DNA of 44,228 bases from Escherichia phage BUCT825: the sequence record PV040721.1. One strand, 5' to 3'. The notes below the pieces were generated by a model that was not told where the DNA came from, made no database searches, and saw only the letters and a list, made by a program, of their open reading frames with translations. The stretch's first letter is position 1. Every line of letters starts with the position of its first letter. The position numbers and the translations under genes are program-made. This document shows, one piece after another, positions 1,076-35,304 of the stretch.

Positions 1076-3245
1076 AACGCTTCATCTCCGCACCTTCTGC
1101 TACAAGAGGGAACCCCTCCGCCCATTCAGGTAATTCGCACATCAACCGCTCAAGCTCTGCGACATTGTATTCTGGTAAATCCGGTGTCTCGCAGATAATT
1201 TCATCGTGAACATGAAGCACAATCGGGTAGCCGTTTGCTTCGACGTTCAGCAGCGCATTAGCCAGCAAATCACGGCACAGCGCCTGTGTGCAGTTTTCCA
1301 CGAGTTTACCGGAATATGTGTACTGGAAGCCCCACTGACGGGTTAACTGATTTTCTCCCTGGTACTTTATGCGCACGTTAGTAGACACCTTCCCATCTTC
1401 GTCTGTCTCTTTCGATACGCTCAACCCTACGCCTGGGTAAGACATAACGCGGCCCGACGGCAACGTCATGCGCAGCCACCAACCGGCGACTTTGTTGCTG
1501 TTGTTGTCTGTCTCTACGTTGCGCGAAAACTTAACTCCCCGCGGCCCCGCGGTGAACTCTTTGCCCGGATTGCGGATAGCCGCCATAGCCGCATCTTCAA
1601 TATCACGCCAGAAAGCTACTGTTTCCGGGTGTGACTCACGCCACATACGCTTGATAGCGTCGCAGGTACGCCACACTTTCTTATCAAGAATATAAGATGG
1701 TCGGTCATCTTTTTCACCAGGACGTGGCGGTCGCTTGGCTTCCTGAATACGCGCCCACTCATATCCACGTGCGGTAGCAGCCCAGATGTGGTCGGGGAAA
1801 GTCCCGTCCATTGTTTTTGCCATATCAACAAGGTCAAGGCCGAGGTTTTTGGCGAACTGTACGAATGCACCGACACCACCCGCGTAGCCAAGTCCCAGTT
1901 CGCAGGCCTTACCAATCTGGCGTAAGTCTTTACGTTCTTTCTTAATGTAATCCGACTCCATGCCAAACATCTTGCCTGCGGTTACGCAGTAAATATCCAG
2001 CCCGGCACGGAACGTATCAAGCGCGGTTTCTTCGCCAGCCAGCCACGCCAAACCGCGGCCTTCAACGTTAGAGTAATCGGCGACGACAAACTTATGCCCG
2101 GCTTCAGGTATAATGCAGCTGCGCACCGTCGATGCCGTTAGTTTGGCTACATCGAAACGGCGGTGCGCACGGCCTTTAAGTAACGCAGAAATGCCTTTAT
2201 CCAGTTCGTCGTCGTGATAGTACCCGCGAGCCAGGTTCTGCGGCTGGAAGCCTTTACCCGCAAATCGTAACGTACGTTTAGCTCCACCATACTGGATGCA
2301 ACCGCGACGGCGGTCGTCAGACGAGCGGCCTAACAGCAGCGGGTTATATTTCGTTGACGCAGTGGATGCCGCCCCGAGGCGCATTTCGATAATCGTGCGG
2401 GCGTCGTCCGGTAAATCATCATCCGCCAACAGGTCATTTAGCGTCGACTTCTGCGCGTTGTGGATTCGGTGCGCTGGCGCAAGTTCACGCAGAATAGGAA
2501 GGAAGTCTTTACCAGTAAGCGAGCCGCCGTATTTACGTTGGGCTTCTTCCTGCAACTGCGCTTTGTGTTTCTCTACCGCTTCAATCGCGGCTTCCGCCAA
2601 CGCAACGTCGACCTTAAACCCGCGGTCGTTGATTAACTGGTCCAGTTCCAGTACACGGTCCTCAAACTCCGAGTTACCCCACCGCGGTAGCTTATGGAAC
2701 ACTTCACGCATCGCGGTGATGTCGCTAACTGCGTACTTGATGAACAGCGCCCACTCGTCAGGGTGCGTTTCGGCGGTATAGCGGCGAATTTTGTAGTTCT
2801 TCGGTGTCGGTTTAGAGAAACGCTGAATCAGCGCCTTACCGCGTTTGTCTTTTGCGTTGTCAGCAGATACGCCCAGCACTTCGCACAGCGCATCGAGCGA
2901 ACCCGGCAGCGCGTGACGAAACGCCCAAATCATCGTATCAATGGTGTTGCTTACCGGAATGTCAAAACCCCAGCAGTGTTTCATGACGAGCCTATCGAAC
3001 ATTGAGCCGTTGTGCCACACCATCTTAACGCGGCTGTTCGGCTTAACCAGGCGGCGTAACGCGCGATACAAATCGCCCGGCATATCGCTGCCGTCGGTGC
3101 AATCCCATACCTGTACAGGCTGGTCGTTAAAAGCATATGTACAGATTAGCACTTCGGTAGTTGGATGTTCGGCGTAAGCGTAGGAACCGACTTTCTTCAA
3201 ATCGGCTTCGGAGAATGTTTCAAAGTCTAAGAACAGGTAACTCAT
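1065..3245 (-). CDS. Family A DNA polymerase with N-terminal 3'-5' exonuclease domain (726 aa)
   Basis: Exo I motif LDFETFS; Pol motif A DYSNVEGR, motif B RQIGKACELGLGYAGG, motif C VLHVHDEI. Confidence 0.9.
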   Translation of the reverse strand: MSYLFLDFETFSEADLKKVGSYAYAEHPTTEVLICTYAFNDQPVQVWDCTDGSDMPGDLYRALRRLVKPNSRVKMVWHNGSMFDRLVMKHCWGFDIPVSNTIDTMIWAFRHALPGSLDALCEVLGVSADNAKDKRGKALIQRFSKPTPKNYKIRRYTAETHPDEWALFIKYAVSDITAMREVFHKLPRWGNSEFEDRVLELDQLINDRGFKVDVALAEAAIEAVEKHKAQLQEEAQRKYGGSLTGKDFLPILRELAPAHRIHNAQKSTLNDLLADDDLPDDARTIIEMRLGAASTASTKYNPLLLGRSSDDRRRGCIQYGGAKRTLRFAGKGFQPQNLARGYYHDDELDKGISALLKGRAHRRFDVAKLTASTVRSCIIPEAGHKFVVADYSNVEGRGLAWLAGEETALDTFRAGLDIYCVTAGKMFGMESDYIKKERKDLRQIGKACELGLGYAGGVGAFVQFAKNLGLDLVDMAKTMDGTFPDHIWAATARGYEWARIQEAKRPPRPGEKDDRPSYILDKKVWRTCDAIKRMWRESHPETVAFWRDIEDAAMAAIRNPGKEFTAGPRGVKFSRNVETDNNSNKVAGWWLRMTLPSGRVMSYPGVGLSVSKETDEDGKVSTNVRIKYQGENQLTRQWGFQYTYSGKLVENCTQALCRDLLANALLNVEANGYPIVLHVHDEIICETPDLPEYNVAELERLMCELPEWAEGFPLVAEGAEMKRYAK

Positions 3246-3265
3246 TATTTTCGACCCTTAGTAAA

Positions 3266-3285
3266 AAGGCCCAATGAAGGGCCTT
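3266..3285 (-). terminator. Intrinsic terminator-like hairpin on minus strand between SSB-like gene and polymerase gene
   Basis: Minus strand reads AAGGCCC-TTCATT-GGGCCTT followed by TTTTACT. Confidence 0.45.
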
Positions 3286-3304
3286 AGTTAAATTGATTCA
3301 GATA

Positions 3305-3931
3305 TTAGCGGCGGCGACGTTCGCGGCGCGGTGCTTCATCTTCTTCGTCGTCTTCCAGGTCATTGACGCTCGCAGCGACTTTAGAACCGCCGAACGCTTT
3401 GCCTTCGCCAACGTATTTAATCGCCAGCAGGTTAACGCCGAGGACTTTGTATTTCTGGCTGAACCAGATTTCAACGCTTACGTTAGCTAAGCATCCGCTG
3501 TAAACCTGTTCACCTTCAATCTGTTCACCGTCTACATTGAAGTCCTGTTCTACCTGAGTCTCACCTTTTTTAGAGGTTACAATCAGCGGCTGCTTCTGTG
3601 CCTTCGCTTTGAAGTAGAAGCCTTCCGGGAAGTCTTCAAACGGATTGTCACGCTCGGCAATGTCTTTAATCGCACATTTATCCATGTGCTTACCTTCGCC
3701 GTAGTTGGACTTCATCCACTTCTCGGCGGCGGCTGCACCTAACGCTTCTTCAACTACAGCGTAAACGGTGTCGTAGAGCGCGTCGATTTGCGCGTGGTCG
3801 GACGGCAGGATAATAGTCGCGCTGTACTGACCTTTAGTGATTGAACCATCATCATTTTCACGGTCTTTTTCGCGTTCGAATACGTTAACCCAAGCAGTGT
3901 TTACTTTACGCAGATTTAATTTCAGTCCCAT
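3305..3931 (-). CDS. putative ssDNA-binding protein (DUF2815-like), 208 aa with acidic/arginine-rich tail
   Basis: Position between nuclease and polymerase, own promoter and terminator, acidic C-terminus DDEEDEAPRRERRRR; family assignment from memory. Confidence 0.45.
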   Translation of the reverse strand: MGLKLNLRKVNTAWVNVFEREKDRENDDGSITKGQYSATIILPSDHAQIDALYDTVYAVVEEALGAAAAEKWMKSNYGEGKHMDKCAIKDIAERDNPFEDFPEGFYFKAKAQKQPLIVTSKKGETQVEQDFNVDGEQIEGEQVYSGCLANVSVEIWFSQKYKVLGVNLLAIKYVGEGKAFGGSKVAASVNDLEDDEEDEAPRRERRRR

Positions 3932-3986
3932 TTCTCGATTCCTCAGTTTTCAGTTTACTCCGGGAGCTGCCCGGCCAGTGATTAGA

Positions 3987-4015
3987 ACTATAATAGCTAA
4001 CTATTCAGGTGTCAA
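3987..4015 (-). promoter_or_regulatory. sigma70-like promoter, minus strand (-35 TTGACA 4010-4015, -10 TATAGT 3987-3992)
   Basis: Reverse complement TTGACA-N17-TATAGT; conserved with 578-606 and 7083-7111. Confidence 0.65.
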
Positions 4016-4019
4016 CACT

Positions 4020-5261
4020 TTATTCTAAATCTTCTTCACTAACCTTATTCCACTCAGGACGTTTGTCGTCCGCTGTTGTGACGCATGGCGCCCCCGGCTT
4101 ACGTGTGATGAAGTCTTTCAGTTCTTCTTCTGGTATTACTTTAACCGCTTCGGTCGGCGTCAGGAGCACTTCTTTAGTCAGCTTGTCGCCGTAGAGTTCT
4201 GCTACTTTCTCTGCGTCTTTCCACGCACGATTACCTGGGCGACCTTCCACCAGCTTGTACCCTGGCACTTTCTTACCGGAATGCAACGCAGCAGCCATAG
4301 CTTTTTCGACCTTATCGATGTGCTGGCGCAACAACGGCAACTTCTCATATTCAGCTACGAGTTGCTCCGGCGTAAGTTCCAGCGCAAAGTCGTCCTCCAG
4401 TTCTTCGGCAAGTACAGAATTAACCGTCTTTGTACGCGCTGCGCACTGTTCAGAGAACCGACACCACTGACAACCGTCGACAGACGGCTTAAAGTCCGAC
4501 GCTTTCAGGTTCTTCTTGCCTCGGAAATACGCATCAAGGGCTAACAGTGCGCGTTTCTGTGCGAACTTAGCGAACAGTTCCAGACCTTCAACCGAGATGT
4601 CCCACTCCGACGCGCCCCCGGCGTACGGCTGGAAGATGACTAGGCGCACTACTGATATGTTATAACGTCTCTTGAGTCGGCGGTAAACACCGAGAGCGTA
4701 GAGCATAAGCTGCTTGTTTTCTTTCGCTTCGACATGATGCCGTCCTGTTTTCAGGTCGCCGATAATGAGCATATGCTCGTCAGTGTTCGCCAGTTCCTGA
4801 ACGGCAACAAGGTCAGCGGTTCCGAACGTCTCAACGCCTTCGTAACCCGGATGCAATACCTCAGTAAGATTTACCCGCATTTCCAGCTTGGCGTAAGTCG
4901 CTACGTCGATAATCGCTTTGCAGTAGTCGGTGTACTTGCGCACCTGCTCAATCATGTCAGCCGTAATCAGTACCGCGCCTTTCATCTGGCTAATTAGCGC
5001 CTTAATCTGGCCTTTACCCTCGTCCAGCACGTAAGCGCCGACTTCACGCTCCAACGGCAACGCAGTGCCGCGTATATAGGCGTTGAGATGGACCTCAGCT
5101 ATGGTGTGCATGGCGGTTCCTGATACAGCGGCTTTACCCGACGTGTTAGGGATATCTTTTTCACACGCCAGCGACGCAGCGCATGACAGCCACTTTTTAG
5201 CGCCTGACGGTGACAGTAAGGCGTGTACATCATTATTGCCGCCTCGTTCTTTTAGTTTCAT
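4020..5261 (-). CDS. PD-(D/E)XK / Cas4-like nuclease (DUF2800-like) with C-terminal Cys cluster; start may be 5282
   Basis: ORF 4020-5282; internal ATG at 5261 has a better SD (GGGAG); C-terminal CQWCRFSEQC motif; N-terminal LSPSGAKKWLSCAAS. Confidence 0.6.
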   Translation of the reverse strand: MKLKERGGNNDVHALLSPSGAKKWLSCAASLACEKDIPNTSGKAAVSGTAMHTIAEVHLNAYIRGTALPLEREVGAYVLDEGKGQIKALISQMKGAVLITADMIEQVRKYTDYCKAIIDVATYAKLEMRVNLTEVLHPGYEGVETFGTADLVAVQELANTDEHMLIIGDLKTGRHHVEAKENKQLMLYALGVYRRLKRRYNISVVRLVIFQPYAGGASEWDISVEGLELFAKFAQKRALLALDAYFRGKKNLKASDFKPSVDGCQWCRFSEQCAARTKTVNSVLAEELEDDFALELTPEQLVAEYEKLPLLRQHIDKVEKAMAAALHSGKKVPGYKLVEGRPGNRAWKDAEKVAELYGDKLTKEVLLTPTEAVKVIPEEELKDFITRKPGAPCVTTADDKRPEWNKVSEEDLE

Positions 5262-5412
5262 GCTCTTAAACTCCCACCCCATTTAACTTTACGCGTTTTG
5301 CGCTTGTAGGCGCACGTGTCACCGCTACGGTTGAATATAATCAGCCAAGTCGAGTTGCTTACTCGAAAAGGCTGGTGACATTTAATAAAGAGAAGTCGCG
5401 CTTTACGGTTCG

Positions 5413-5562
5413 TCATTCTGCAATCTCCACAATACGCGCATTAGTGAAACTGCGTGCGAAGCCGAATGTGTAGAAGATGTACTGGGCTTCGTCCAAACGT
5501 GCGTAGCGGCTGTGTTCCTGGTCTTTACCGTCTATTTCTACAATTATCGCGTACCTTGTCAT
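5413..5562 (-). CDS. putative 49-aa protein
   Basis: Manual translation MTRYAIIVEIDGKDQEHSRYARLDEAQYIFYTFGFARSFTNARIVEIAE; ATGA overlap with upstream ORF stop. Confidence 0.3.
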   Translation of the reverse strand: MTRYAIIVEIDGKDQEHSRYARLDEAQYIFYTFGFARSFTNARIVEIAE

Positions 5563-10570: not shown

Positions 10571-10599
10571 TTGCACACCCCAACATAATAGGTTACTAT
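10571..10599 (+). promoter_or_regulatory. Early-type promoter (-35 TTGCAC, 17-bp spacer, -10 TACTAT followed by TCAC)
   Basis: TTGCACACCCCAACATAATAGGTTACTATTCAC; near-identical copies at 12262-12290 (+) and 32118-32146 (-). Confidence 0.6.
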
Positions 10600-12261: not shown

Positions 12262-12290
12262 TTGCACACTAAGATAGAATAGGCTACTAT
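12262..12290 (+). promoter_or_regulatory. Early-type promoter (-35 TTGCAC, 17-bp spacer, -10 TACTAT followed by TCA)
   Basis: TTGCACACTAAGATAGAATAGGCTACTATTCA. Confidence 0.6.
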
Positions 12291-28080: not shown

Positions 28081-28493
28081 TGGGCTACTTTGAGGACTTA
28101 ACAAAAGCGTTTGATGTGCCGCTGGTAGCCTTCGGAACCGCCAACGGCATCAAAGTCGCGCTTGAAAATATCGGCGCACCGACGTCAACCGATACACCAT
28201 ATCTGGCAAGTTACATGTTGCTGGCGGATACGGAACAGGCGGATTTGTTCTTCACGGAACAACGCGCTGGCGTCTATCAGGTAGATATTAACTACGCATC
28301 GGTGAAAGGTAGCGCGCCAATCAATAAAATGGCAGACTTACTTAACACGGCGTTTAAAGCAGGTAAGTCATTTTCACGTAACGACATCTGCGCCGAGGTT
28401 CAATCGGTTAGCCTGGGGCCGCTGATTGTAGAAAACGGATGGGCCAAACGACCATTGTCAATTAACTTTATTGCATTCACCAAGAGGCTGTGA
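28077..28493 (+). CDS. tail terminator-like protein (138 aa)
   Basis: Position immediately upstream of major tail gene. Confidence 0.45.
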   Translation: MMGYFEDLTKAFDVPLVAFGTANGIKVALENIGAPTSTDTPYLASYMLLADTEQADLFFTEQRAGVYQVDINYASVKGSAPINKMADLLNTAFKAGKSFSRNDICAEVQSVSLGPLIVENGWAKRPLSINFIAFTKRL

Positions 28494-29662
28494 ATATGGC
28501 TACAACTCCTTTTAAGGGCGCGAATACTGCGCAATTCTATGTGGCAGAAACTATCCCCGGCGTAACACCAAGTAACCCGGTCTGGTCGCCATTGCGCAAT
28601 ACGGGCGGCGTTCCCGCCATTACCCGCGACACGCTGACCTCCAACGAACTGGACGGCAGCCGTGAAACTACGTCCATCCGCACCGGTAACAAACAGGTTA
28701 GCGGGGAATACGCCATCGAGCTTAGCTCGAAAAGCCAGGACGACTGGTTAGCTGGGGCTTTAGGTTCTACGTGGCAATCCGGTGTTTCTCTGTCCGGTCT
28801 GTCTATTACCGTCGCCCCGGCGGGAAAGACGTTCACCCGTGCTGATGGCAGCTTTATTACCGACGGCGTTGAAGTGGGTGACCTGATTGCGTTTACCGAC
28901 TTAACGGGTGATAACGCCAAACCGTTTATTGTTACTGCAGTAACGGCTACGGTTGTTACTGGTGCGGGCATCCAACACACCCTGACCACCGAGACAAAAA
29001 CTAGTAAGGCTAAAACTGGCGACACGTTGGAAACCGGTAACGCGTGTAAGACGTTCTCTATCCTTACCTGGTACAAAGGCCAGTGCGGCGGTACTGACGC
29101 GTACACGTTAACCAAAGGCGTGGAAGTTTCTGGTTTTACCATCGAACAGGCTGTTAACGCGATGGTAACTGGCAGCTTCCCATTCATCGGTCGCAGTCAG
29201 GAGATTCTCACTACGCCGCCGACCGGTTCCAACTTCTCATCTGTTACTTTTGGTGATGAGCCGTTCTCTTCGGTTGACGTTTCCGTGTTCGACGGCTCTA
29301 CGCCGTTGCGTTGCGACAGTCTGACTATCACCAACGATAACAGCGCGTCCGCGCAGTTCGAACTTGGTAACACTAACGTAGCGTTTGTGGAGCGTAGCCG
29401 TGCAGCTAACACCTTCTCCATCTCCGGTAAGCTGTATGACATGGCGATGATTCAGAAGTTTATCAACGAGCAGCAGGTAGAGATTAACTCCATTCTGGCG
29501 GGGGTAAACGGGGCTATGTCTTTCAGTTTGAAACGTGCAGAGCTTACGGCGGTCACACCTGAGATTGGTGGCCCTGAGTCAATCACTCAGTCTATTGAAG
29601 GCCAGGCCACCGGCAACCAGTACCAGTCGTCTATCGTAATTCAACGTATTAGTTACGCGTAA
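28490..29662 (+). CDS. major tail (tube) protein, 390 aa
   Basis: Large Thr/Ser/Gly-rich protein followed by strong terminator; position before chaperone/TMP block. Confidence 0.55.
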   Translation: MNMATTPFKGANTAQFYVAETIPGVTPSNPVWSPLRNTGGVPAITRDTLTSNELDGSRETTSIRTGNKQVSGEYAIELSSKSQDDWLAGALGSTWQSGVSLSGLSITVAPAGKTFTRADGSFITDGVEVGDLIAFTDLTGDNAKPFIVTAVTATVVTGAGIQHTLTTETKTSKAKTGDTLETGNACKTFSILTWYKGQCGGTDAYTLTKGVEVSGFTIEQAVNAMVTGSFPFIGRSQEILTTPPTGSNFSSVTFGDEPFSSVDVSVFDGSTPLRCDSLTITNDNSASAQFELGNTNVAFVERSRAANTFSISGKLYDMAMIQKFINEQQVEINSILAGVNGAMSFSLKRAELTAVTPEIGGPESITQSIEGQATGNQYQSSIVIQRISYA

Positions 29663-29666
29663 AACT

Positions 29667-29690
29667 AAGGCCCCGAAAGGGGCCTTTTCC
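29667..29690. terminator. Bidirectional intrinsic terminator (AAGGCCCC-GAAA-GGGGCCTT) between convergent tail-tube and kinase genes
   Basis: 8-bp stem flanked by A-run upstream and T-run downstream; near-identical copy at 42199-42222. Confidence 0.7.
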
Positions 29691-30245
29691 CTACAAACCT
29701 AATTTTAAAGCAATGTCTATAACGTTCGATTTAACGTCACCTGGTATGATGTAGGTGTCGTAATCTTTTACACCATCAACGCCATACAGATAGCCACGGC
29801 TGTCCCCTTCAAACGTATAGCCGTCTCTGTGCAAGCGAACAATTCTTACGTCATGCCCAGCGGCGACGATAGGGACCACTTCACTGGCGAATCCACCGTC
29901 GGACACTACAAAAACTTCGTCGCCGTCAGGCAAGTTTTCAGCGAGATATTTACCGAAATAATCGCTGCCGAGGGCCGGTTTAATGAATTGTTCAGAGATA
30001 GCAATCATGAACCGACGGCGCGACAACCCATTAAGGAAACCTTCTGGCTTTTCTTTCCTGGCCCGGTCGTCGTAGCCGTCGAGAAACTCGTGGTAAGCAT
30101 CCGGGCCTAACGCAGCCATAGCGATATTGAACATCGGATTCTTGAAACTGGTAGTTCCTTTCGCAAAGCCCATTTCTACCAGTGCCATAGCAAGCGTGTC
30201 TTTCCCGCAACCCGCAGGGCCATTAAGAATAATTACCTTAGCCAT
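29691..30245 (-). CDS. P-loop nucleotide kinase, T4 Dnk-like (dNMP kinase family), 184 aa
   Basis: Walker A ILNGPAGCGKDT resembles T4 Dnk LSGVKRSGKDT; start overlaps HAD stop by 1 nt. Confidence 0.7.
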   Translation of the reverse strand: MAKVIILNGPAGCGKDTLAMALVEMGFAKGTTSFKNPMFNIAMAALGPDAYHEFLDGYDDRARKEKPEGFLNGLSRRRFMIAISEQFIKPALGSDYFGKYLAENLPDGDEVFVVSDGGFASEVVPIVAAGHDVRIVRLHRDGYTFEGDSRGYLYGVDGVKDYDTYIIPGDVKSNVIDIALKLGL

Positions 30246-30730
30246 TATTTATCGCTCCCATGTGGTTTTAAGTGTGTAGAGTTCCCGTTACAGTCGTATT
30301 CAGTAACCGCGTGAGTGGTTATGCCGAGTTCGCGGAAATGCTTTATTACCGCTGGCGAGTCGTCGAATGCACACAAGATTCTTTCCAGCCCAATAGCACG
30401 CAACACCTCTTCTTTAATTACGATGTCTTTTCTGTTGTCGTGTTTGCTGCGCATGATTAGCTGATAAAATTCGACGCGGTGGCGCTGCAACCACATTCTG
30501 GTTTCTTTTTCTGCATCATCACTACGGCCCGTTAAAATGATAACGGCATAGCGACGATTGAGGGCGTTACACAGTTCTATGTTATCTCTAATTGGTTCAT
30601 CATCTTTGCACGCCATGTTAAAGGGCTTCCACGCCCATGTTTCGTTGTAGTTATCTTTCGGCAGCAGGTGCAAACGATGTGTCCCATCCGCCAATGTCCC
30701 GTCTAAATCGAAAATTACAATATCTTTCAT
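30245..30730 (-). CDS. HAD-family phosphatase resembling the T4 Pnkp 3'-phosphatase domain, 161 aa
   Basis: Motif I IFDLDGTLA; ILTGR; KDIVIKEEV; FDDSP pattern parallels T4 Pnkp IFDVDGTLA / VVVSGR / KDDVVKEEI / IDDR. Confidence 0.7.
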   Translation of the reverse strand: MKDIVIFDLDGTLADGTHRLHLLPKDNYNETWAWKPFNMACKDDEPIRDNIELCNALNRRYAVIILTGRSDDAEKETRMWLQRHRVEFYQLIMRSKHDNRKDIVIKEEVLRAIGLERILCAFDDSPAVIKHFRELGITTHAVTEYDCNGNSTHLKPHGSDK

Positions 30731-31857
30731 CCCAGCATCTCCGGTGAAATAGTTAAACGTGCGACCTCGCCAAATTCGGCGCTATAAGTAATTACATTTG
30801 CACTACGGCCCGACATCCAACCTCCGCGGGAGGCGTAGGCGTCTTTAGCCGCTAAGGTGCGGTGTTGCTCAACAATCATGTTACGGCTTTCTACAATCTT
30901 CTGGTGGTGCAGATGGCCTACGTGGGCGTAGCTGTAAACACTCTCGCCGAACGCTTTACGGAACTTGGCAATCATAACAGGTTCAATAGCGTCGAATCGT
31001 GCTTTATGCCCGTGATGGAAGAACAGCGTCGTTTTGCCGTGTTGCACCATCTTGTAAACATCCGGTGACGTATCGACGAACACACGCGGCTCATTGTCAT
31101 ACAGCGTACTGAACATCTCAGCCAACCAAATCATGCCACTTTCGTCGTGATTCCCTTGCACGATAAGCAAGCGAACATTTTTATGCTTAACCAGCGCCAT
31201 ATCGACAACACGGCGGACCATGCGAATCATGTAGCGGACAAGTTTCTGGTAACGGGTGTCGGCGTCAAGGGCGTGACCGCTTGCAGGTGTAACGGCAACC
31301 AGACTATCGAAGTGCGCGAAGTCGCCCAGCAGGTTAATAACCCCAGTCCCCGCATCCGGTGCTTTCTGGAATGCCGCATCGAACCAACGGGAGAACAGGT
31401 CTTCTGCAATCTTCATATCCCAGTCGTCGCCACTCTCGTCGGCCCAGGCCAGCATACCGAGATGGAAATCAGACACAGTGTAAAGGTTGAGTAGCTTGTC
31501 GTCCCGTTTGGCGCGAACGGCTTTAACAGGAGCAACGGGGGTAATCTCCGACTTCATGCCCTCGATTATGGCTTTCATCAACTCGACCTGACGTTCGGCA
31601 TCGGTGTCGGTCTTAACCCATTGCAGTTTAGTGTTGCCTAACTCATCAACCAGAGACGATGTACCCTTAATCTTGTAGCCGTCCGGCACAAGGTGGCTAA
31701 CGTCACGCCCGTGGCCTACGCCTTTCTTCGCTAGTTTCGCTTTACGGATACGAATAACGCGGTCTGAGATGCCGTATTTACGAGCAATGTCGATATTCTT
31801 CATCCCAGCGTTCAATTCTTCCTGTAACTGTTCGTCGGTTATTTTCTTCTGGGCCAT
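30727..31857 (-). CDS. Calcineurin-like metallophosphoesterase with N-terminal sigma-region-4-like HTH (about 376 aa; longer ORF to 31962 less likely)
   Basis: Motifs DFH, GDFAHFD, VQGNHDE, FHHGH, HVGHLHH; N-terminal NIDIARKYGISDRVIRIRKAKL; ATG 31857 with SD GAGGAA. Confidence 0.7.
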   Translation of the reverse strand: MAQKKITDEQLQEELNAGMKNIDIARKYGISDRVIRIRKAKLAKKGVGHGRDVSHLVPDGYKIKGTSSLVDELGNTKLQWVKTDTDAERQVELMKAIIEGMKSEITPVAPVKAVRAKRDDKLLNLYTVSDFHLGMLAWADESGDDWDMKIAEDLFSRWFDAAFQKAPDAGTGVINLLGDFAHFDSLVAVTPASGHALDADTRYQKLVRYMIRMVRRVVDMALVKHKNVRLLIVQGNHDESGMIWLAEMFSTLYDNEPRVFVDTSPDVYKMVQHGKTTLFFHHGHKARFDAIEPVMIAKFRKAFGESVYSYAHVGHLHHQKIVESRNMIVEQHRTLAAKDAYASRGGWMSGRSANVITYSAEFGEVARLTISPEMLG

Positions 31858-31895
31858 GCCTATTTCCTCGTGTTTAGGATTTGTCTTATAGTAGC

Positions 31896-32087
31896 CTACT
31901 TCTCTTTCACGTTCGAGTTGCAAGCCCAGATTAAAATAAATACCCACGGCAGCAGAACCCAACCAAGAAACAGATTAGCCATGAATATCGCTAACTTCGC
32001 TTTATGGTTACGGAAGTACGCAACCAGGAAAGGCGCGAAATAAGCGAGCAGTGCAAACAGAATTAAGGAAACTGGTAAACTGGACAT
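31896..32087 (-). CDS. small 2-TM membrane protein (about 63 aa), first gene of antisense cassette
   Basis: Hydrophobic segments LPVSLILFALLAYFAPFLVAYF and LFLGWVLLPWVFILIWA; SD GAAGGGG. Confidence 0.5.
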   Translation of the reverse strand: MSSLPVSLILFALLAYFAPFLVAYFRNHKAKLAIFMANLFLGWVLLPWVFILIWACNSNVKEK

Positions 32088-32117
32088 TTTAAACCCCTTC
32101 ATTGTTGGTGTAAGTGA

Positions 32118-32146
32118 ATAGTACCCTATTATATTGGGGTACGCAA
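32118..32146 (-). promoter_or_regulatory. Early-type promoter on minus strand (-35 TTGCGT, 17-bp spacer, -10 TACTAT followed by TCAC) driving the antisense cassette
   Basis: Reverse complement TTGCGTACCCCAATATAATAGGGTACTATTCAC, nearly identical to the promoter at 10571-10599. Confidence 0.6.
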
Positions 32147-32253
32147 GTAGTGTGTTAGAATAAGTTTGCGCCTAGTGTCGCACACGAAAAGCGGGTGGTT
32201 CCCGTCTGGCGCGTCAACCTTAACCTGTAACCTCTTAACCAAAGGATTAAAGA

Positions 32254-32673
32254 ATGAAACTTTCTGATTTTTATTTCGAAGAGAAAGCACTGGTGGGCAA
32301 GAAGATGCCGATTCTCCTGCCGAATGGTGAAGACTCAGGGGAGTGGCTTAACGTTGTAAGCCCTGATGCGGATGCCGCCGTTAAAGCGGGGCGTGCGTTC
32401 ATTATTGCGTACCGTAGAGGGTTGGCACGTTTCGAAGAACTGGAAAAAGCCGCCAAAGACTCCGGCGACTATACTGAATATAACCTGGCAGTTAACGAAC
32501 TGGCGGAAGACCTCAACAGGCAACTTGCGGCAGAAGTCGTAAACGGCTGGAGCTTTGACGACGAGCCTTTCTCTAAGGAAGCGTTCAACAAATTGCTCGA
32601 CCAGTTCAAAGGTCTTGGAACCCAGGTTGCGGCGTTCCATAACGCCGAGCGCAAAGCATTACAGGAAAAGTAG
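32254..32673 (+). CDS. tail assembly chaperone (gpG-like position), 139 aa
   Basis: Acidic helical protein immediately upstream of tape measure region. Confidence 0.55.
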   Translation: MKLSDFYFEEKALVGKKMPILLPNGEDSGEWLNVVSPDADAAVKAGRAFIIAYRRGLARFEELEKAAKDSGDYTEYNLAVNELAEDLNRQLAAEVVNGWSFDDEPFSKEAFNKLLDQFKGLGTQVAAFHNAERKALQEK

Positions 32674-32705: not shown

Positions 32706-33038
32706 GTGGATAAGCATAAAATCAGAGAGTTCGATTCTATAGCTGACGGGCACGAACAGGCGCTTATCGCGATGGGTGTAATCGATAAGAAAAAACGTGC
32801 AGCGCGAAGGGGTGGGCCAGAATGCCCGCCCCTTTTTATATCCACCTTTGAGACGTACTGTGATATTAAGTTTACGCGACACGTGCGCGAGGACGCTGTA
32901 GTATTGTTCGCAAGAGAATCCGTTACGTGGCAAGACCTGAAAGCCTATCTCGATGTTACGCAAAAACAGCTTAGCCTGTTCGAGATAGACATTATCATGG
33001 GCTTAGAAGCAATCTTTGAAGGTAGAAATCATGGCTGA
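32706..33038 (+). CDS. possible tail assembly chaperone extension (gpT-like position); start uncertain
   Basis: ORF in the -1 frame relative to the chaperone gene, overlapping TMP start; no canonical slippery heptamer found. Confidence 0.3.
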   Translation: MDKHKIREFDSIADGHEQALIAMGVIDKKKRAARRGGPECPPLFISTFETYCDIKFTRHVREDAVVLFARESVTWQDLKAYLDVTQKQLSLFEIDIIMGLEAIFEGRNHG

Positions 33039-35304
33039 TACCGCTAGCTTGATAGTACGAGTATCATCGACCGGCGTCGATAAAACAACATCACAACTGA
33101 ACGGGCTTACTAAAGCCGCAGGCGCTGCGGCTGCCGCCGTTGTCAGCCTGGAAACCGCTAAGCAGGTGTTCAGTGCACTGGTGGACTCCCAGCGCAACTT
33201 CGATAAGCTGAACTCCGGCCTCATCACAATGACCGGGAGCGCCGAGAACGCGGCTAAGGCTTTCAGCGTACTGCAGCAATTCGCAAAAGAAACCCCGTAC
33301 GGCCTCAATCAGGCGGTCGAGGGCTTCACTAAACTCGTAGCTCTTGGGCTAAACCCCGGCAAAGAGGCATTAATCTCCTACGGCAACACCGCGGCTGCTA
33401 TGGGTAAAGACCTTAATCAGATGATTGAGGCAGTTGCCGACGCCAGTACCTTTGAGTTTGAGCGACTAAAAGAGTTCGGCATCAAGTCGTCGCAACAGGC
33501 GGATACAGTTTCGTTCACGTTCCGCGGCGTAACGACCACGGTTAAAAAGAACTCCGAAGAGATTCAGAAATACCTGTTAAACATCGGCAACACCGATTTT
33601 GCCGGAGCGATGGAGACACGCTCTAAGACGCTAGACGGTCAGTTATCGAGCCTCGCCGACTCCTTCGATGGTCTTGTTCTTGCGGTAGCGCAATCCGGTT
33701 TTGGTGACGCGGTAGGCGAACAAGCGGCAACAGCGGAAGATGCTATTACAGCGCTCACCGACGCTATAGCGTCTAATGAGATAGCCGCCACGCTCCAGGA
33801 CTGGACGACACTGTTCAATGAGTCGTTCAAGTTTATTTCTGACGCCTTGAACGACCTGGCATATGACACCGAGGACAAATCCTCGGATATGTCCGACTCG
33901 CTGGGTACTATACCGGATGCTATCCGTGAGTGGCTGCCCGACATCCAGCAGACATTCCACGAGGTTATTGCGTGGTTCCAGCGCATTGACGATTACGCCG
34001 TAGCGTTAGGACAGACCCTTGCCGACGTGTTTGACCCGAGCAAAACGGCGGCGCTCACATTTAAAAACCTGACCGCAGAGGCCGACGCCGCATACGCCGC
34101 CAGCATAAAACGCGCAGAGGCGGAATCACAGGCCATTACAGACAGGTCTAAGCAGCGTAAGAAAGAAATTGAGGAACAGCGCAAGCAGTACGACGAGCGC
34201 AAGAAGCAAGAAATTGACTTAGCCCGCCTTGTTAATAAAAAGGGTGGAACTGGCAGCACCGGAAACGCCGACGATAAAGCAGCAAAAGCCGCCGCCAAGA
34301 AAGCAGAACAATTGCGGAATCAGGCGCAAGATTACCTCGACACTTTGGCCCGCCAGAACAACGATGAGTTAAAGGCTATCGACGCGCAGGAACAGCAGAA
34401 ACTGGCTAAGGCAAAAGAGTTCTACAGCCAGGGCGCGCTGTCACTGAAAGAATACGAGCAAGCAAAAACGGCTATTGTCCTAGAAGCAGGGCAAAAACGA
34501 CAAGATGAACTGGATAAACGCCAGAAAGAAGCCCAGGAAAAGCAACAGAAAGGTGACGACTTCATGGCTCAGATTATGGGCCAGAACGCTACTGAGCTTG
34601 AGCTTCTCGACATCCAGGAACAGCAGAAACTGGCGGTAGCGGATAAGTACCGCGAGCAGGGTTTGATTAGCGAGAAGCAGTATCAGGCCGCTCTTAACGC
34701 CATCAACGAGCAATACGCAACCAAGCGTGCCGATGCAACGGCAACGGCCTTTGGTAACATGGCCTCAAACATCGGGTCTGCGTTGGGTGAGGCTTCTGGC
34801 GCGTACAAGGCATTTGCTATCGTACAGGCCACCATAGCCACGTACACCGCGGCTATCGAGGCGTACAAGTCCACGGCGGCTATCCCCGTAGTTGGCCCGT
34901 TCCTGGCCCCTGTAGCCGCTGCCGCTGCCGTTGGTGCAGGTATGGCGCAGGTTTCCGCTATCCGGTCCGCGCGTGAACAGGGCGGACAGTTATCCGCAGG
35001 GCAGGCTTCCACCATCGCAGAACGCGGTAAACCGGAAGTTATCATGCCAGCGGGGGCATCGCGTGTTCGCACCGCACAGCAGATGAAAGAAATTATGGGG
35101 CAAAACGGGTCTTCTTCCGGCCCGTCTAATGTTACTATCGTAAACAACACGAGTTCTCAAATCGGCAACGTATCCACCGAGCAAGATGATGAAGGCCGTT
35201 TGCGTATCATCATCGAGGAGCAAGTTGCCGCATCTTTGCAGAACAGCAACAGTAAGATTAGCAAGGCCAGAAAGGCCACAAGAAACGCGCCGGGGTTTAA
35301 ATAA
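33031..35304 (+). CDS. tail tape measure protein (about 757 aa)
   Basis: Long Ala/Gln/Lys-rich coiled-coil protein with internal repeats and Gly-rich C-terminal region; ATG 33031 with SD GAAGGTAG. Confidence 0.8.
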   Translation: MADTASLIVRVSSTGVDKTTSQLNGLTKAAGAAAAAVVSLETAKQVFSALVDSQRNFDKLNSGLITMTGSAENAAKAFSVLQQFAKETPYGLNQAVEGFTKLVALGLNPGKEALISYGNTAAAMGKDLNQMIEAVADASTFEFERLKEFGIKSSQQADTVSFTFRGVTTTVKKNSEEIQKYLLNIGNTDFAGAMETRSKTLDGQLSSLADSFDGLVLAVAQSGFGDAVGEQAATAEDAITALTDAIASNEIAATLQDWTTLFNESFKFISDALNDLAYDTEDKSSDMSDSLGTIPDAIREWLPDIQQTFHEVIAWFQRIDDYAVALGQTLADVFDPSKTAALTFKNLTAEADAAYAASIKRAEAESQAITDRSKQRKKEIEEQRKQYDERKKQEIDLARLVNKKGGTGSTGNADDKAAKAAAKKAEQLRNQAQDYLDTLARQNNDELKAIDAQEQQKLAKAKEFYSQGALSLKEYEQAKTAIVLEAGQKRQDELDKRQKEAQEKQQKGDDFMAQIMGQNATELELLDIQEQQKLAVADKYREQGLISEKQYQAALNAINEQYATKRADATATAFGNMASNIGSALGEASGAYKAFAIVQATIATYTAAIEAYKSTAAIPVVGPFLAPVAAAAAVGAGMAQVSAIRSAREQGGQLSAGQASTIAERGKPEVIMPAGASRVRTAQQMKEIMGQNGSSSGPSNVTIVNNTSSQIGNVSTEQDDEGRLRIIIEEQVAASLQNSNSKISKARKATRNAPGFK
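34387..34634 (+). repeat. In-frame direct repeat in TMP gene: 20-bp exact copies CAGGAACAGCAGAAACTGGC at 34387-34406 and 34615-34634
   Basis: Copies 228 bp (76 codons) apart; encode repeated QEQQKLA peptide. Confidence 0.8.

Follow-up and report, generated by a model that had tools for sequence, protein, structure and literature searches.

The pre-early operon of phage T5 carries its genes in the order A2 - 005 - A1 - 003 - 002 - dmp. The predicted metallophosphatase A1 is required for the digestion of host DNA and also suffices for it; A2 binds DNA, and Dmp, encoded in the same operon, is a deoxynucleoside monophosphate (dNMP) phosphatase that improves virulence (bioRxiv 10.64898/2026.04.02.716235). 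Gp48, a metallophosphoesterase (MPE) of mycobacteriophage A10ZJ24, is also produced early and disrupts host DNA (PMC12287305). Here we describe a block of four minus-strand genes at positions 29691-32146 of a DNA stretch from Escherichia phage BUCT825 (sequence record PV040721.1); the whole stretch analysed, 44,228 nucleotides (nt) in length, is referred to as the window. In the direction of its transcription, the block encodes an Imm-like membrane peptide, a helix-turn-helix (HTH) MPE, a HAD phosphatase and a gp1-like kinase.

According to our analysis, the block is best read as a separately transcribed non-structural island whose predicted activities would be DNA breakdown or end processing, combined with dNMP handling. 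We assign this reading a probability of slightly below one half (about 0.48). By analogy, the pattern is best likened to A2/A1/Dmp of T5 and to gp46/47-gp1 of T4, the recycling counterpart in that phage being the gp46/47 nuclease plus the gp1 kinase.

The window corresponds to about one genome and was placed in the genus Kagunavirus of the subfamily Guernseyvirinae. Identity of the region to Escherichia phage vB_VIPECOTH07 (PQ417132) is 96.5%, and that to K1G and related phages is about 91%. Minus-strand replication genes lie at roughly 1-10.6 kb and 42.3-44.2 kb, and the plus strand between these segments carries the lysis, head and tail genes. Within this plus-strand virion region the block is the sole minus-strand stretch, and its orientation matches that of the replication genes. 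All four open reading frames (ORFs) that an earlier note on this DNA had described as splitting the late structural operon are indeed present, with the tail tube gene on one side and the genes for the tail assembly chaperone on the other (Table 1). The identities given there, namely a Dnk-like kinase, a Pnkp-type HAD phosphatase, a complete calcineurin-like MPE and a membrane peptide, were likewise upheld by Pfam, PHROG, fold and motif evidence. Translational coupling had been proposed for all four genes. The last three do overlap, with ATGA at the MPE/HAD junction and TAATG at the HAD/kinase junction, while the Imm-like gene is separate, lying 38 nt upstream of the MPE gene without overlap. 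The longest ORF for the MPE (30727-31962) opens with TTG; the conserved start is instead the ATG at 31857 behind GAGGAA, and the homologues are 376 aa in length.

A promoter-like element is located ahead of the first gene, and two further near-identical 29-nt copies were found on the plus strand (10571-10599 and 12262-12290), ahead of small genes beside the replication module. The three copies share the form TTGCrYAC...AATAGGnTACTAT with TTCAyTTA downstream, and the loose promoter pattern gave 3 matches in the genome compared with 0.48 expected. In relatives the element of the block is kept both ahead of Imm and where an unrelated 108-aa gene comes first. It is plausible that the three-copy element represents a phage-specific promoter class, and the conserved spacer of the 29-nt elements suggests either such a class or a regulator binding site. 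At the other end, the hairpin terminator is common to the block and the convergent tail tube gene. Its stem (29667-29686) contains 8 bp of G+C and lies within the 28-nt gap between the convergent stop codons. The folding energy was -18 kcal/mol (z -3.7) on the plus strand and -19.4 kcal/mol on the minus strand, and the hairpin is followed by UUUU on the plus strand and UUAGUUUU on the minus strand. A consensus promoter and terminator scan missed both candidates because of its thresholds, and they were found by reading, folding and pattern search. Both the promoter and the bidirectional terminator reported in the earlier note were upheld as candidate elements, while the "early" timing attached to the promoter was inferred only.

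The MPE gene has a leader of its own. This segment of about 40 nt, with the sequence ATAGGACAAATCCTAAACAcGAGGAA, precedes the MPE gene in relatives irrespective of the upstream gene and moves together with the MPE gene, not with its upstream neighbour. It holds a small inverted repeat (AGGA-CAAA-TCCT) and a TAnnAT-like -10 hexamer (TACTAT, TAGTAT, TAGAAT or TTAAAT) at a constant position in relatives. An internal promoter TCGAAC-N17-TACTAT at this place was considered and rejected, because its conservation is only partial.

The MPE shows an alpha/beta sandwich fold and five metal-binding motifs that are invariant across its family (D130xH132, G178D179xxH182, G235N236H237, H281H282 and G314H315xH317), as expected for the calcineurin-like superfamily. 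It was assigned to PHROG 704, and its Pfam Metallophos scores fell under the gathering cut-offs. The first set of homologues was more than 96% identical throughout; diverse alignments built from IMG/VR loci were used for modelling. The resulting model (pLDDT 80.5) consists of an N-terminal LuxR/resolvase-like HTH, which is conserved across the whole family, a beta-hairpin with helix, and the catalytic domain. Its fold neighbours were Mre11 (listed value 11.3), MJ0936 (10.7), PolD DP1 (10.1), SbcD (9.8) and Rv0805 (8.8), with nucleases (Mre11, DP1 and SbcD) prominent at the top; lambda-phosphatase and CthPnkp entries were absent from this list. Judged from the model, the MPE is a complete but divergent enzyme nearest to Mre11, SbcD and small phosphodiesterases. 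Assignment to the lambda-phosphatase/CthPnkp type was rejected, since neither the GDxxDRG motif II nor a PPP-like fold was found; the capping domain and the Rad50/SbcC ATPase partner of Mre11/SbcD were not found either. Two family-specific invariant loops, TPASGHxLDxDTR and DAYASRGGW, were modelled with low confidence. Single-sequence and profile searches of PDB sequences with the MPE returned chance matches only, a viral structure library returned only uncharacterised relatives and generic metallophosphoesterases, and the NCBIfam and PADLOC family libraries gave nothing informative for the block proteins.

This MPE family is large and uniform in length. It comprises 1599 clusters at 50% identity (E<=1e-30) and occurs in more than 2000 phage records as well as in many proteobacterial genomes, apparently within prophages. 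In 76 prophage-like bacterial loci its neighbours were diverse, with nucleotide genes recurring beside endolysins and terminases. A DNMK kinase and a dATP/dGTP diphosphohydrolase were each found in 7 of these loci; DUF1937 and a YfbR-like protein (weak Pfam match, below cut-off) occurred in 4 each. Literature searches on the family in Drexlerviridae or Guernseyvirinae turned up genome reports only.

The HAD protein matched Pfam HAD_PNKP (1.5e-19, 71 bits against a cut-off of 27.6) and phrog_415 (5.1e-66), and its matches among PDB sequences were Pnkp1 (4xrp) and T4 Pnkp (1ltq/5uj0). In hhalign against T4 PseT the score was 97.8% (E 7.8e-13), with the DxRKDxxxKEE segment included in the alignment. 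Conservation is complete or nearly complete at positions D8, D10, T67, K106, D123 and D124, which match the nucleophile, general acid, phosphate contacts and Mg ligand of T4 Pnkp (PMC3592404). T5 Dmp also belongs to phrog_415 (3.6e-57); direct BLASTP between the HAD protein and Dmp gave an E value of 0.002, and hhalign gave 68.8% over the N-terminal 68 columns only. The family spans both end-healing and mononucleotide phosphatases, and judged from its sequence this putative phosphatase may act on either kind of substrate. The phrog_415 label "polynucleotide kinase" is misleading for at least one member, namely T5 Dmp.

The kinase was assigned to phrog_139 (6.6e-44), the PHROG that also contains T4 gp1 (1.8e-65). 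The top Foldseek match of its AlphaFold2 model (pLDDT 94.2) was 1DEK, the T4 gp1 dNMP kinase (E 1.2e-5, TM 0.67), followed by archaeal adenylate kinases and phosphomevalonate kinases. Because the enzymes with these closest folds all use a phosphate group as acceptor, NMP-kinase chemistry is expected for this protein. In hhalign, gp1 scored 80.6% over 74 columns reaching into the NMP-binding region. Assignment as a Pnkp-type polynucleotide kinase was rejected, as the family aligned with T4 PseT (Pnkp) over 25 P-loop columns only and T4 Pnkp was not among the top 50 Foldseek matches. The family invariants are K35, R61, K64, R77, S84-E85, K89, R140 and D148-S149-R150-Y152, together with G118-F119 inside a near-invariant DGGF motif. 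Searches of PDB sequences with the single sequence and with the profile returned P-loop or chance matches only. A nucleotide kinase inside a structural region has a classical precedent, since T4 gene 1 (dNMP kinase; 4650-5375 of the T4 locus) sits likewise among the virion genes 57A, 3, 2 and 4.

The distribution of these genes was examined in 16 Guernseyvirinae contigs from IMG/VR. The MPE gene was present at the block site in all 16. Upstream of it, the slot was occupied by Imm or by a secreted protein of either 108 or 120 aa; downstream, the HAD-kinase pair was found in half of the contigs (8/16), and in the others the slot was empty or filled by a 76-aa protein, an HNH endonuclease or an Ant-like antirepressor. 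As unrelated genes stand there in relatives without the pair, the site after the MPE gene can be regarded as an insertion hot spot. The genes in this downstream slot are found at L015:6137-6610, L016:6559-7170, L024:6471-7142 and L007:6128-6358 of our locus set. Among published phages at >=80% identity, the MPE was found in about 291 records and the kinase in about 52 (~18%). What had been taken for a fixed four-gene unit is therefore a mosaic around a constant MPE gene, with neighbouring slots that vary among close relatives.

In more distant phages, the order MPE-HAD-kinase was found again in Klebsiella Webervirus KLPN1 and in Era103-like Autographiviridae, at only 41-57% identity. The trio of the T1-like KLPN1 (1844-4082 of its locus) is located at the end of the replication module, and that of the SP6-like podovirus Era103 (2303-5505 of its locus) is flanked by genes for endonuclease VII and an ATP-dependent DNA ligase. 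Outside the subfamily the MPE often occurs without these partners, as in Warwickvirus SLUR29, a Vibrio phage and Rhodobacter phage RcSalem. Among 64 distant kinase loci, the kinase stood alone in 45 and had the HAD gene upstream in 19 (directly adjacent in 14), and a ligase abutted the kinase in about 10. According to notes in the Era103 record, its MPE matches T1 p16 and its kinase T1 p62, an indication that the two genes are unlinked in T1.

The first gene of the block encodes a peptide that matched Pfam Imm_superinfect (PF14373; 9.3e-13, 48.3 bits against a cut-off of 27.9) and phrog_1039, "immunity to superinfection" (4.7e-23). In an RNA-seq series on a Kagunavirus, the Imm gene peaked in the class of the DNA polymerase and methylases (PMC12645636). 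Imm is replaced by unrelated secreted proteins in relatives L005, L007, L016, L017 and L077. The replacements at L005:4610-4936, L007:4609-4935, L016:4609-4938 and L017:1752-2114 have signal-peptide-like N-termini, and belong to phrog_14165 (108 aa) or are 120-aa proteins without PHROG match. They may be alternative exclusion or surface factors.

Beyond the promoter of the block, the two chaperone ORFs, joined in K1G as one frameshifted coding sequence (CDS), are predicted to represent the programmed frameshift that commonly precedes the tape measure gene. The plus-strand leader of the chaperone gene (32147-32253) contains an extended -10-like sequence, TGTGTTAGAAT, at about 32150-32160, back-to-back with the block promoter. 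Downstream of this, a segment at about 32172-32210 is bracketed by GCGCC...GGCGC. The intergenic region is about 87% conserved in relatives, and its fold was no more stable than that of shuffled sequences (z -0.2 to -0.8). It may be where transcription restarts for the tail genes beyond the terminator, providing both promoter and leader.

Table 1. Features of the minus-strand block and of the adjoining tail genes (window positions)
Feature	Position	Strand	Details
Tail tube gene	28490-29662	+	PF18906
Hairpin terminator	29667-29688	both	common to convergent tail tube gene and block
gp1-like P-loop (d)NMP-kinase-fold protein	29691-30245	-	184 aa; P-loop NGPAGCGKDT
Pnkp/Dmp-type HAD phosphatase, stand-alone	30245-30730	-	161 aa
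HTH-metallophosphoesterase (MPE)	30727-31857	-	376 aa; start ATG 31857
MPE catalytic domain	30730-31503	-	residues 119-376; model
MPE HTH	31726-31836	-	residues 8-44; model
MPE gene leader	31858-31895	-	-10-like hexamer TACTAT and ribosome-binding site GAGGAA; conservation
Imm-like two-helix membrane peptide	31896-32087	-	63 aa; second ATG, behind GAAGGGG
Promoter-like element	32118-32146	-	TTGCGT-N17-TACTAT, overlapping TATAAT; pattern search, conservation
Tail assembly chaperone ORFs	32254-32673 plus 32706-33038	+	correspond to joined frameshifted CDS annotated in K1G
Tape measure gene	33016-35304	+	

Taken as an island for DNA breakdown and dNMP handling, the block might work as follows. 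Host RNA polymerase would start at the sigma-70-like, phage-specific promoter, one of three, and would stop at the hairpin behind the kinase gene. The Imm-like peptide would enter the inner membrane and exclude the DNA of superinfecting phages, as an exchangeable add-on. The MPE would bind DNA via its N-terminal HTH, and its binuclear centre would act as a DNA-directed phosphodiesterase or nuclease, with host DNA or DNA ends as the most likely targets, in parallel to T5 A2 plus A1 and to mycobacteriophage Gp48. The HAD phosphatase would then strip terminal or mononucleotide phosphates, that is, 3'-phosphates on ends, 3'-dNMPs or selected 5'-dNMPs. The gp1-like kinase would convert 5'-dNMPs to dNDPs, and host NDP kinase could turn these into dNTPs for phage replication. 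The MPE would represent the core function and the HAD-kinase pair an optional booster in a minority of relatives.

Several points weigh against this proposal. In hhalign the MPE scored only 15% against T5 A1, over nothing but the NHD...WL segment and thus at motif level, and the two proteins fall into different PHROGs (704 and 1745). The HAD phosphatase is nearer to the end-healing phosphatase of T4 Pnkp than to T5 Dmp (97.8% against 68.8%). The kinase did not match Pfam DNMK (PF21448) at E<0.01 and carries DGG where gp1-type kinases have DxR (judged by eye, not in a formal alignment), which leaves room for an acceptor other than a standard dNMP. A 5'-dNMP phosphatase beside a dNMP kinase would be futile unless their specificities differ, and the pair is dispensable, many relatives being without both. 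In this lineage the activities of all three enzymes, like host DNA degradation itself, are predictions, and the time classes of the RNA-seq series (PMC12645636) are coarse.

Of the three roles offered in the earlier note, nucleotide-pool remodelling is the best supported; the gp1 fold and phrog_139 of the kinase, the phrog_415 membership that the HAD protein shares with Dmp and the nucleotide genes near the MPE all point to it. Nucleic-acid end healing may apply to the HAD phosphatase only; the kinase speaks against it. Degradation of second messengers found no specific support, given the MPE fold neighbours Mre11, MJ0936, DP1 and SbcD, its HTH, and no PADLOC match. The remark that the combination is not a textbook phage module was overstated, as the block is annotated in K1G and in dozens of published Kagunavirus genomes and the order of its three enzyme genes recurs in KLPN1 and Era103; for this genus it is an ordinary feature that public records already annotate. 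A role in DNA hypermodification was also considered. The K1G annotation contains no thymidylate-synthase-like or deazaguanine genes, and since Kagunaviruses are highly sensitive to restriction-modification systems, we infer that the enzymes of the block do not serve this purpose.

It is unlikely that the genes have no joint function at all and that the site is simply a hot spot for accessory genes. The MPE would then have its own role in recombination or replication restart, in packaging, or in HTH-mediated regulation of the promoter family. Such a view would fit the HNH endonuclease, Ant-like antirepressor and small unknown genes in the slots of close relatives, the solitary MPE of the SLUR29, Vibrio and Rhodobacter phages, its proximity to genes for lysis or terminase in other lineages, and the separation of MPE and kinase suggested for T1. 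However, the same order with overlapping junctions is found in three virus groups at 41-57% identity, and several families of nucleotide genes, unrelated to one another, turn up repeatedly near the MPE, which speaks against this view.

A bolder version of the nuclease hypothesis was also formulated, and we hold it to be rather improbable as a whole. In this version, the MPE would be a widespread fused counterpart of T5 A2 plus A1, that is, a DNA-guided early nuclease for the host chromosome, and the HAD-kinase pair would handle the freed mononucleotides, both feeding replication and erasing dNMP-type alarm molecules such as m6-dAMP and phosphorylated dinucleotides. If so, the pair would mirror, on the phage side, the calcineurin-HAD defence by which bacteria deplete dNTPs.

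End healing of tRNA or DNA cut by host nucleases appears quite unlikely as the function of the whole block. Here the HAD phosphatase would remove 3'-phosphates or 2',3'-cyclic phosphates, the kinase would phosphorylate 5'-OH ends as the other half of a split Pnkp, the MPE would add a phosphodiesterase, and a host or phage ligase would seal the break. The HAD phosphatase is of bona fide Pnkp type by Pfam, PDB sequence matches and hhalign, its gene overlaps and travels with that of the kinase, and a ligase stands right after the Era103-like trio and abuts the kinase in some distant loci; furthermore, the Pnkp of Clostridium thermocellum unites a kinase with an MPE (PMC2190708). It is the kinase that fails to fit. 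Its likeness to Pnkp is confined to the P-loop, its best fold is a dNMP kinase, the other close folds phosphorylate a phosphate group rather than a hydroxyl, and it stands without the HAD gene in 45 of 64 distant loci. In addition, the annotation of the close relative K1G contains no ligase, and the window is without tRNA genes. T7-like phages keep their ligase and nucleotide kinase genes close together anyway.

Counter-defence provides the last alternative. According to preprints, m6-dAMP released by phage-induced chromosome degradation sets off a calcineurin-HAD defence that depletes dNTPs. ApeA, to which Guernseyvirinae are sensitive, is activated by 5'-phosphorylated deoxydinucleotides. 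The MPE and HAD phosphatase would hydrolyse either cyclic or linear signalling nucleotides or the dNMPs and dinucleotides that host DNA breakdown releases and some defence systems sense, while the kinase would help to clear or rebuild the pools. The idea is distinctly improbable: DNA is a more fitting substrate than a small molecule for a family with an N-terminal HTH throughout, sensitivity to Ec2ApeA persists in Guernseyvirinae, PADLOC gave no matches, and the literature searched contained no genetic or biochemical link.

What the locus mainly exposes is one uncharacterised and widespread HTH-MPE family that often travels with nucleotide-handling enzymes. If this family were a host-DNA nuclease like T5 A1, it would explain precursor supply and host shutdown in many small siphoviruses and some podoviruses. 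The natural variants with and without the HAD-kinase pair would then be useful material on dNMP pools, which are apparently monitored by bacterial immunity. The database labels "polynucleotide kinase" for the HAD protein and "DNA repair exonuclease" for the MPE rest on no assay.

The comparison with T4 shows likeness for three of the block proteins. The Imm-like peptide resembles T4 Imm in passing the Pfam threshold and in being small with two hydrophobic helices, but it has only 63 aa and a predicted function, and is exchangeable for unrelated secreted proteins in relatives. The window HAD phosphatase shares with the phosphatase domain of T4 Pnkp the DxDxT type, the same catalytic set and the DxRKDxxxKEE segment, but it is a stand-alone protein of 161 aa with neither an attached Pnkp-type kinase nor an RNA ligase partner. 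Unlike the bifunctional Pnkp, phosphatase and kinase are encoded on two separate genes, and the neighbouring kinase is of the gp1 family. The kinase itself has T4 gp1 as its best structural match and shares with it the PHROG, the GKDT P-loop and the embedding among virion genes, although the identity is only about 18% and the length 184 aa compared with 241 aa in gp1.

By analogy, the nearest functional parallel of the block is the pre-early operon of T5, for which the spans 124-858 (Dmp) and 1706-3376 (A1) of the T5 locus were compared. The C-terminal half of A1, in which Pfam finds nothing, carries the MPE motifs GDIH, NHD, HGH and GHTH. Between the two-transmembrane peptides of T5 and the window there is a weak local match of 21 residues (48% identity, single-comparison E 6e-04), and hhalign found no sequence similarity between the MPE and A2. 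Two-step DNA transfer belongs to T5 and has no equivalent in the window phage. In T5 the DNA-binding protein and the metallophosphatase are separate products of one early operon, which also encodes a two-helix membrane peptide and a nucleotide phosphatase of HAD type; in the window the HTH and MPE form one polypeptide. Where T5 discards nucleotides, the window phage adds a dNMP-kinase-like enzyme.

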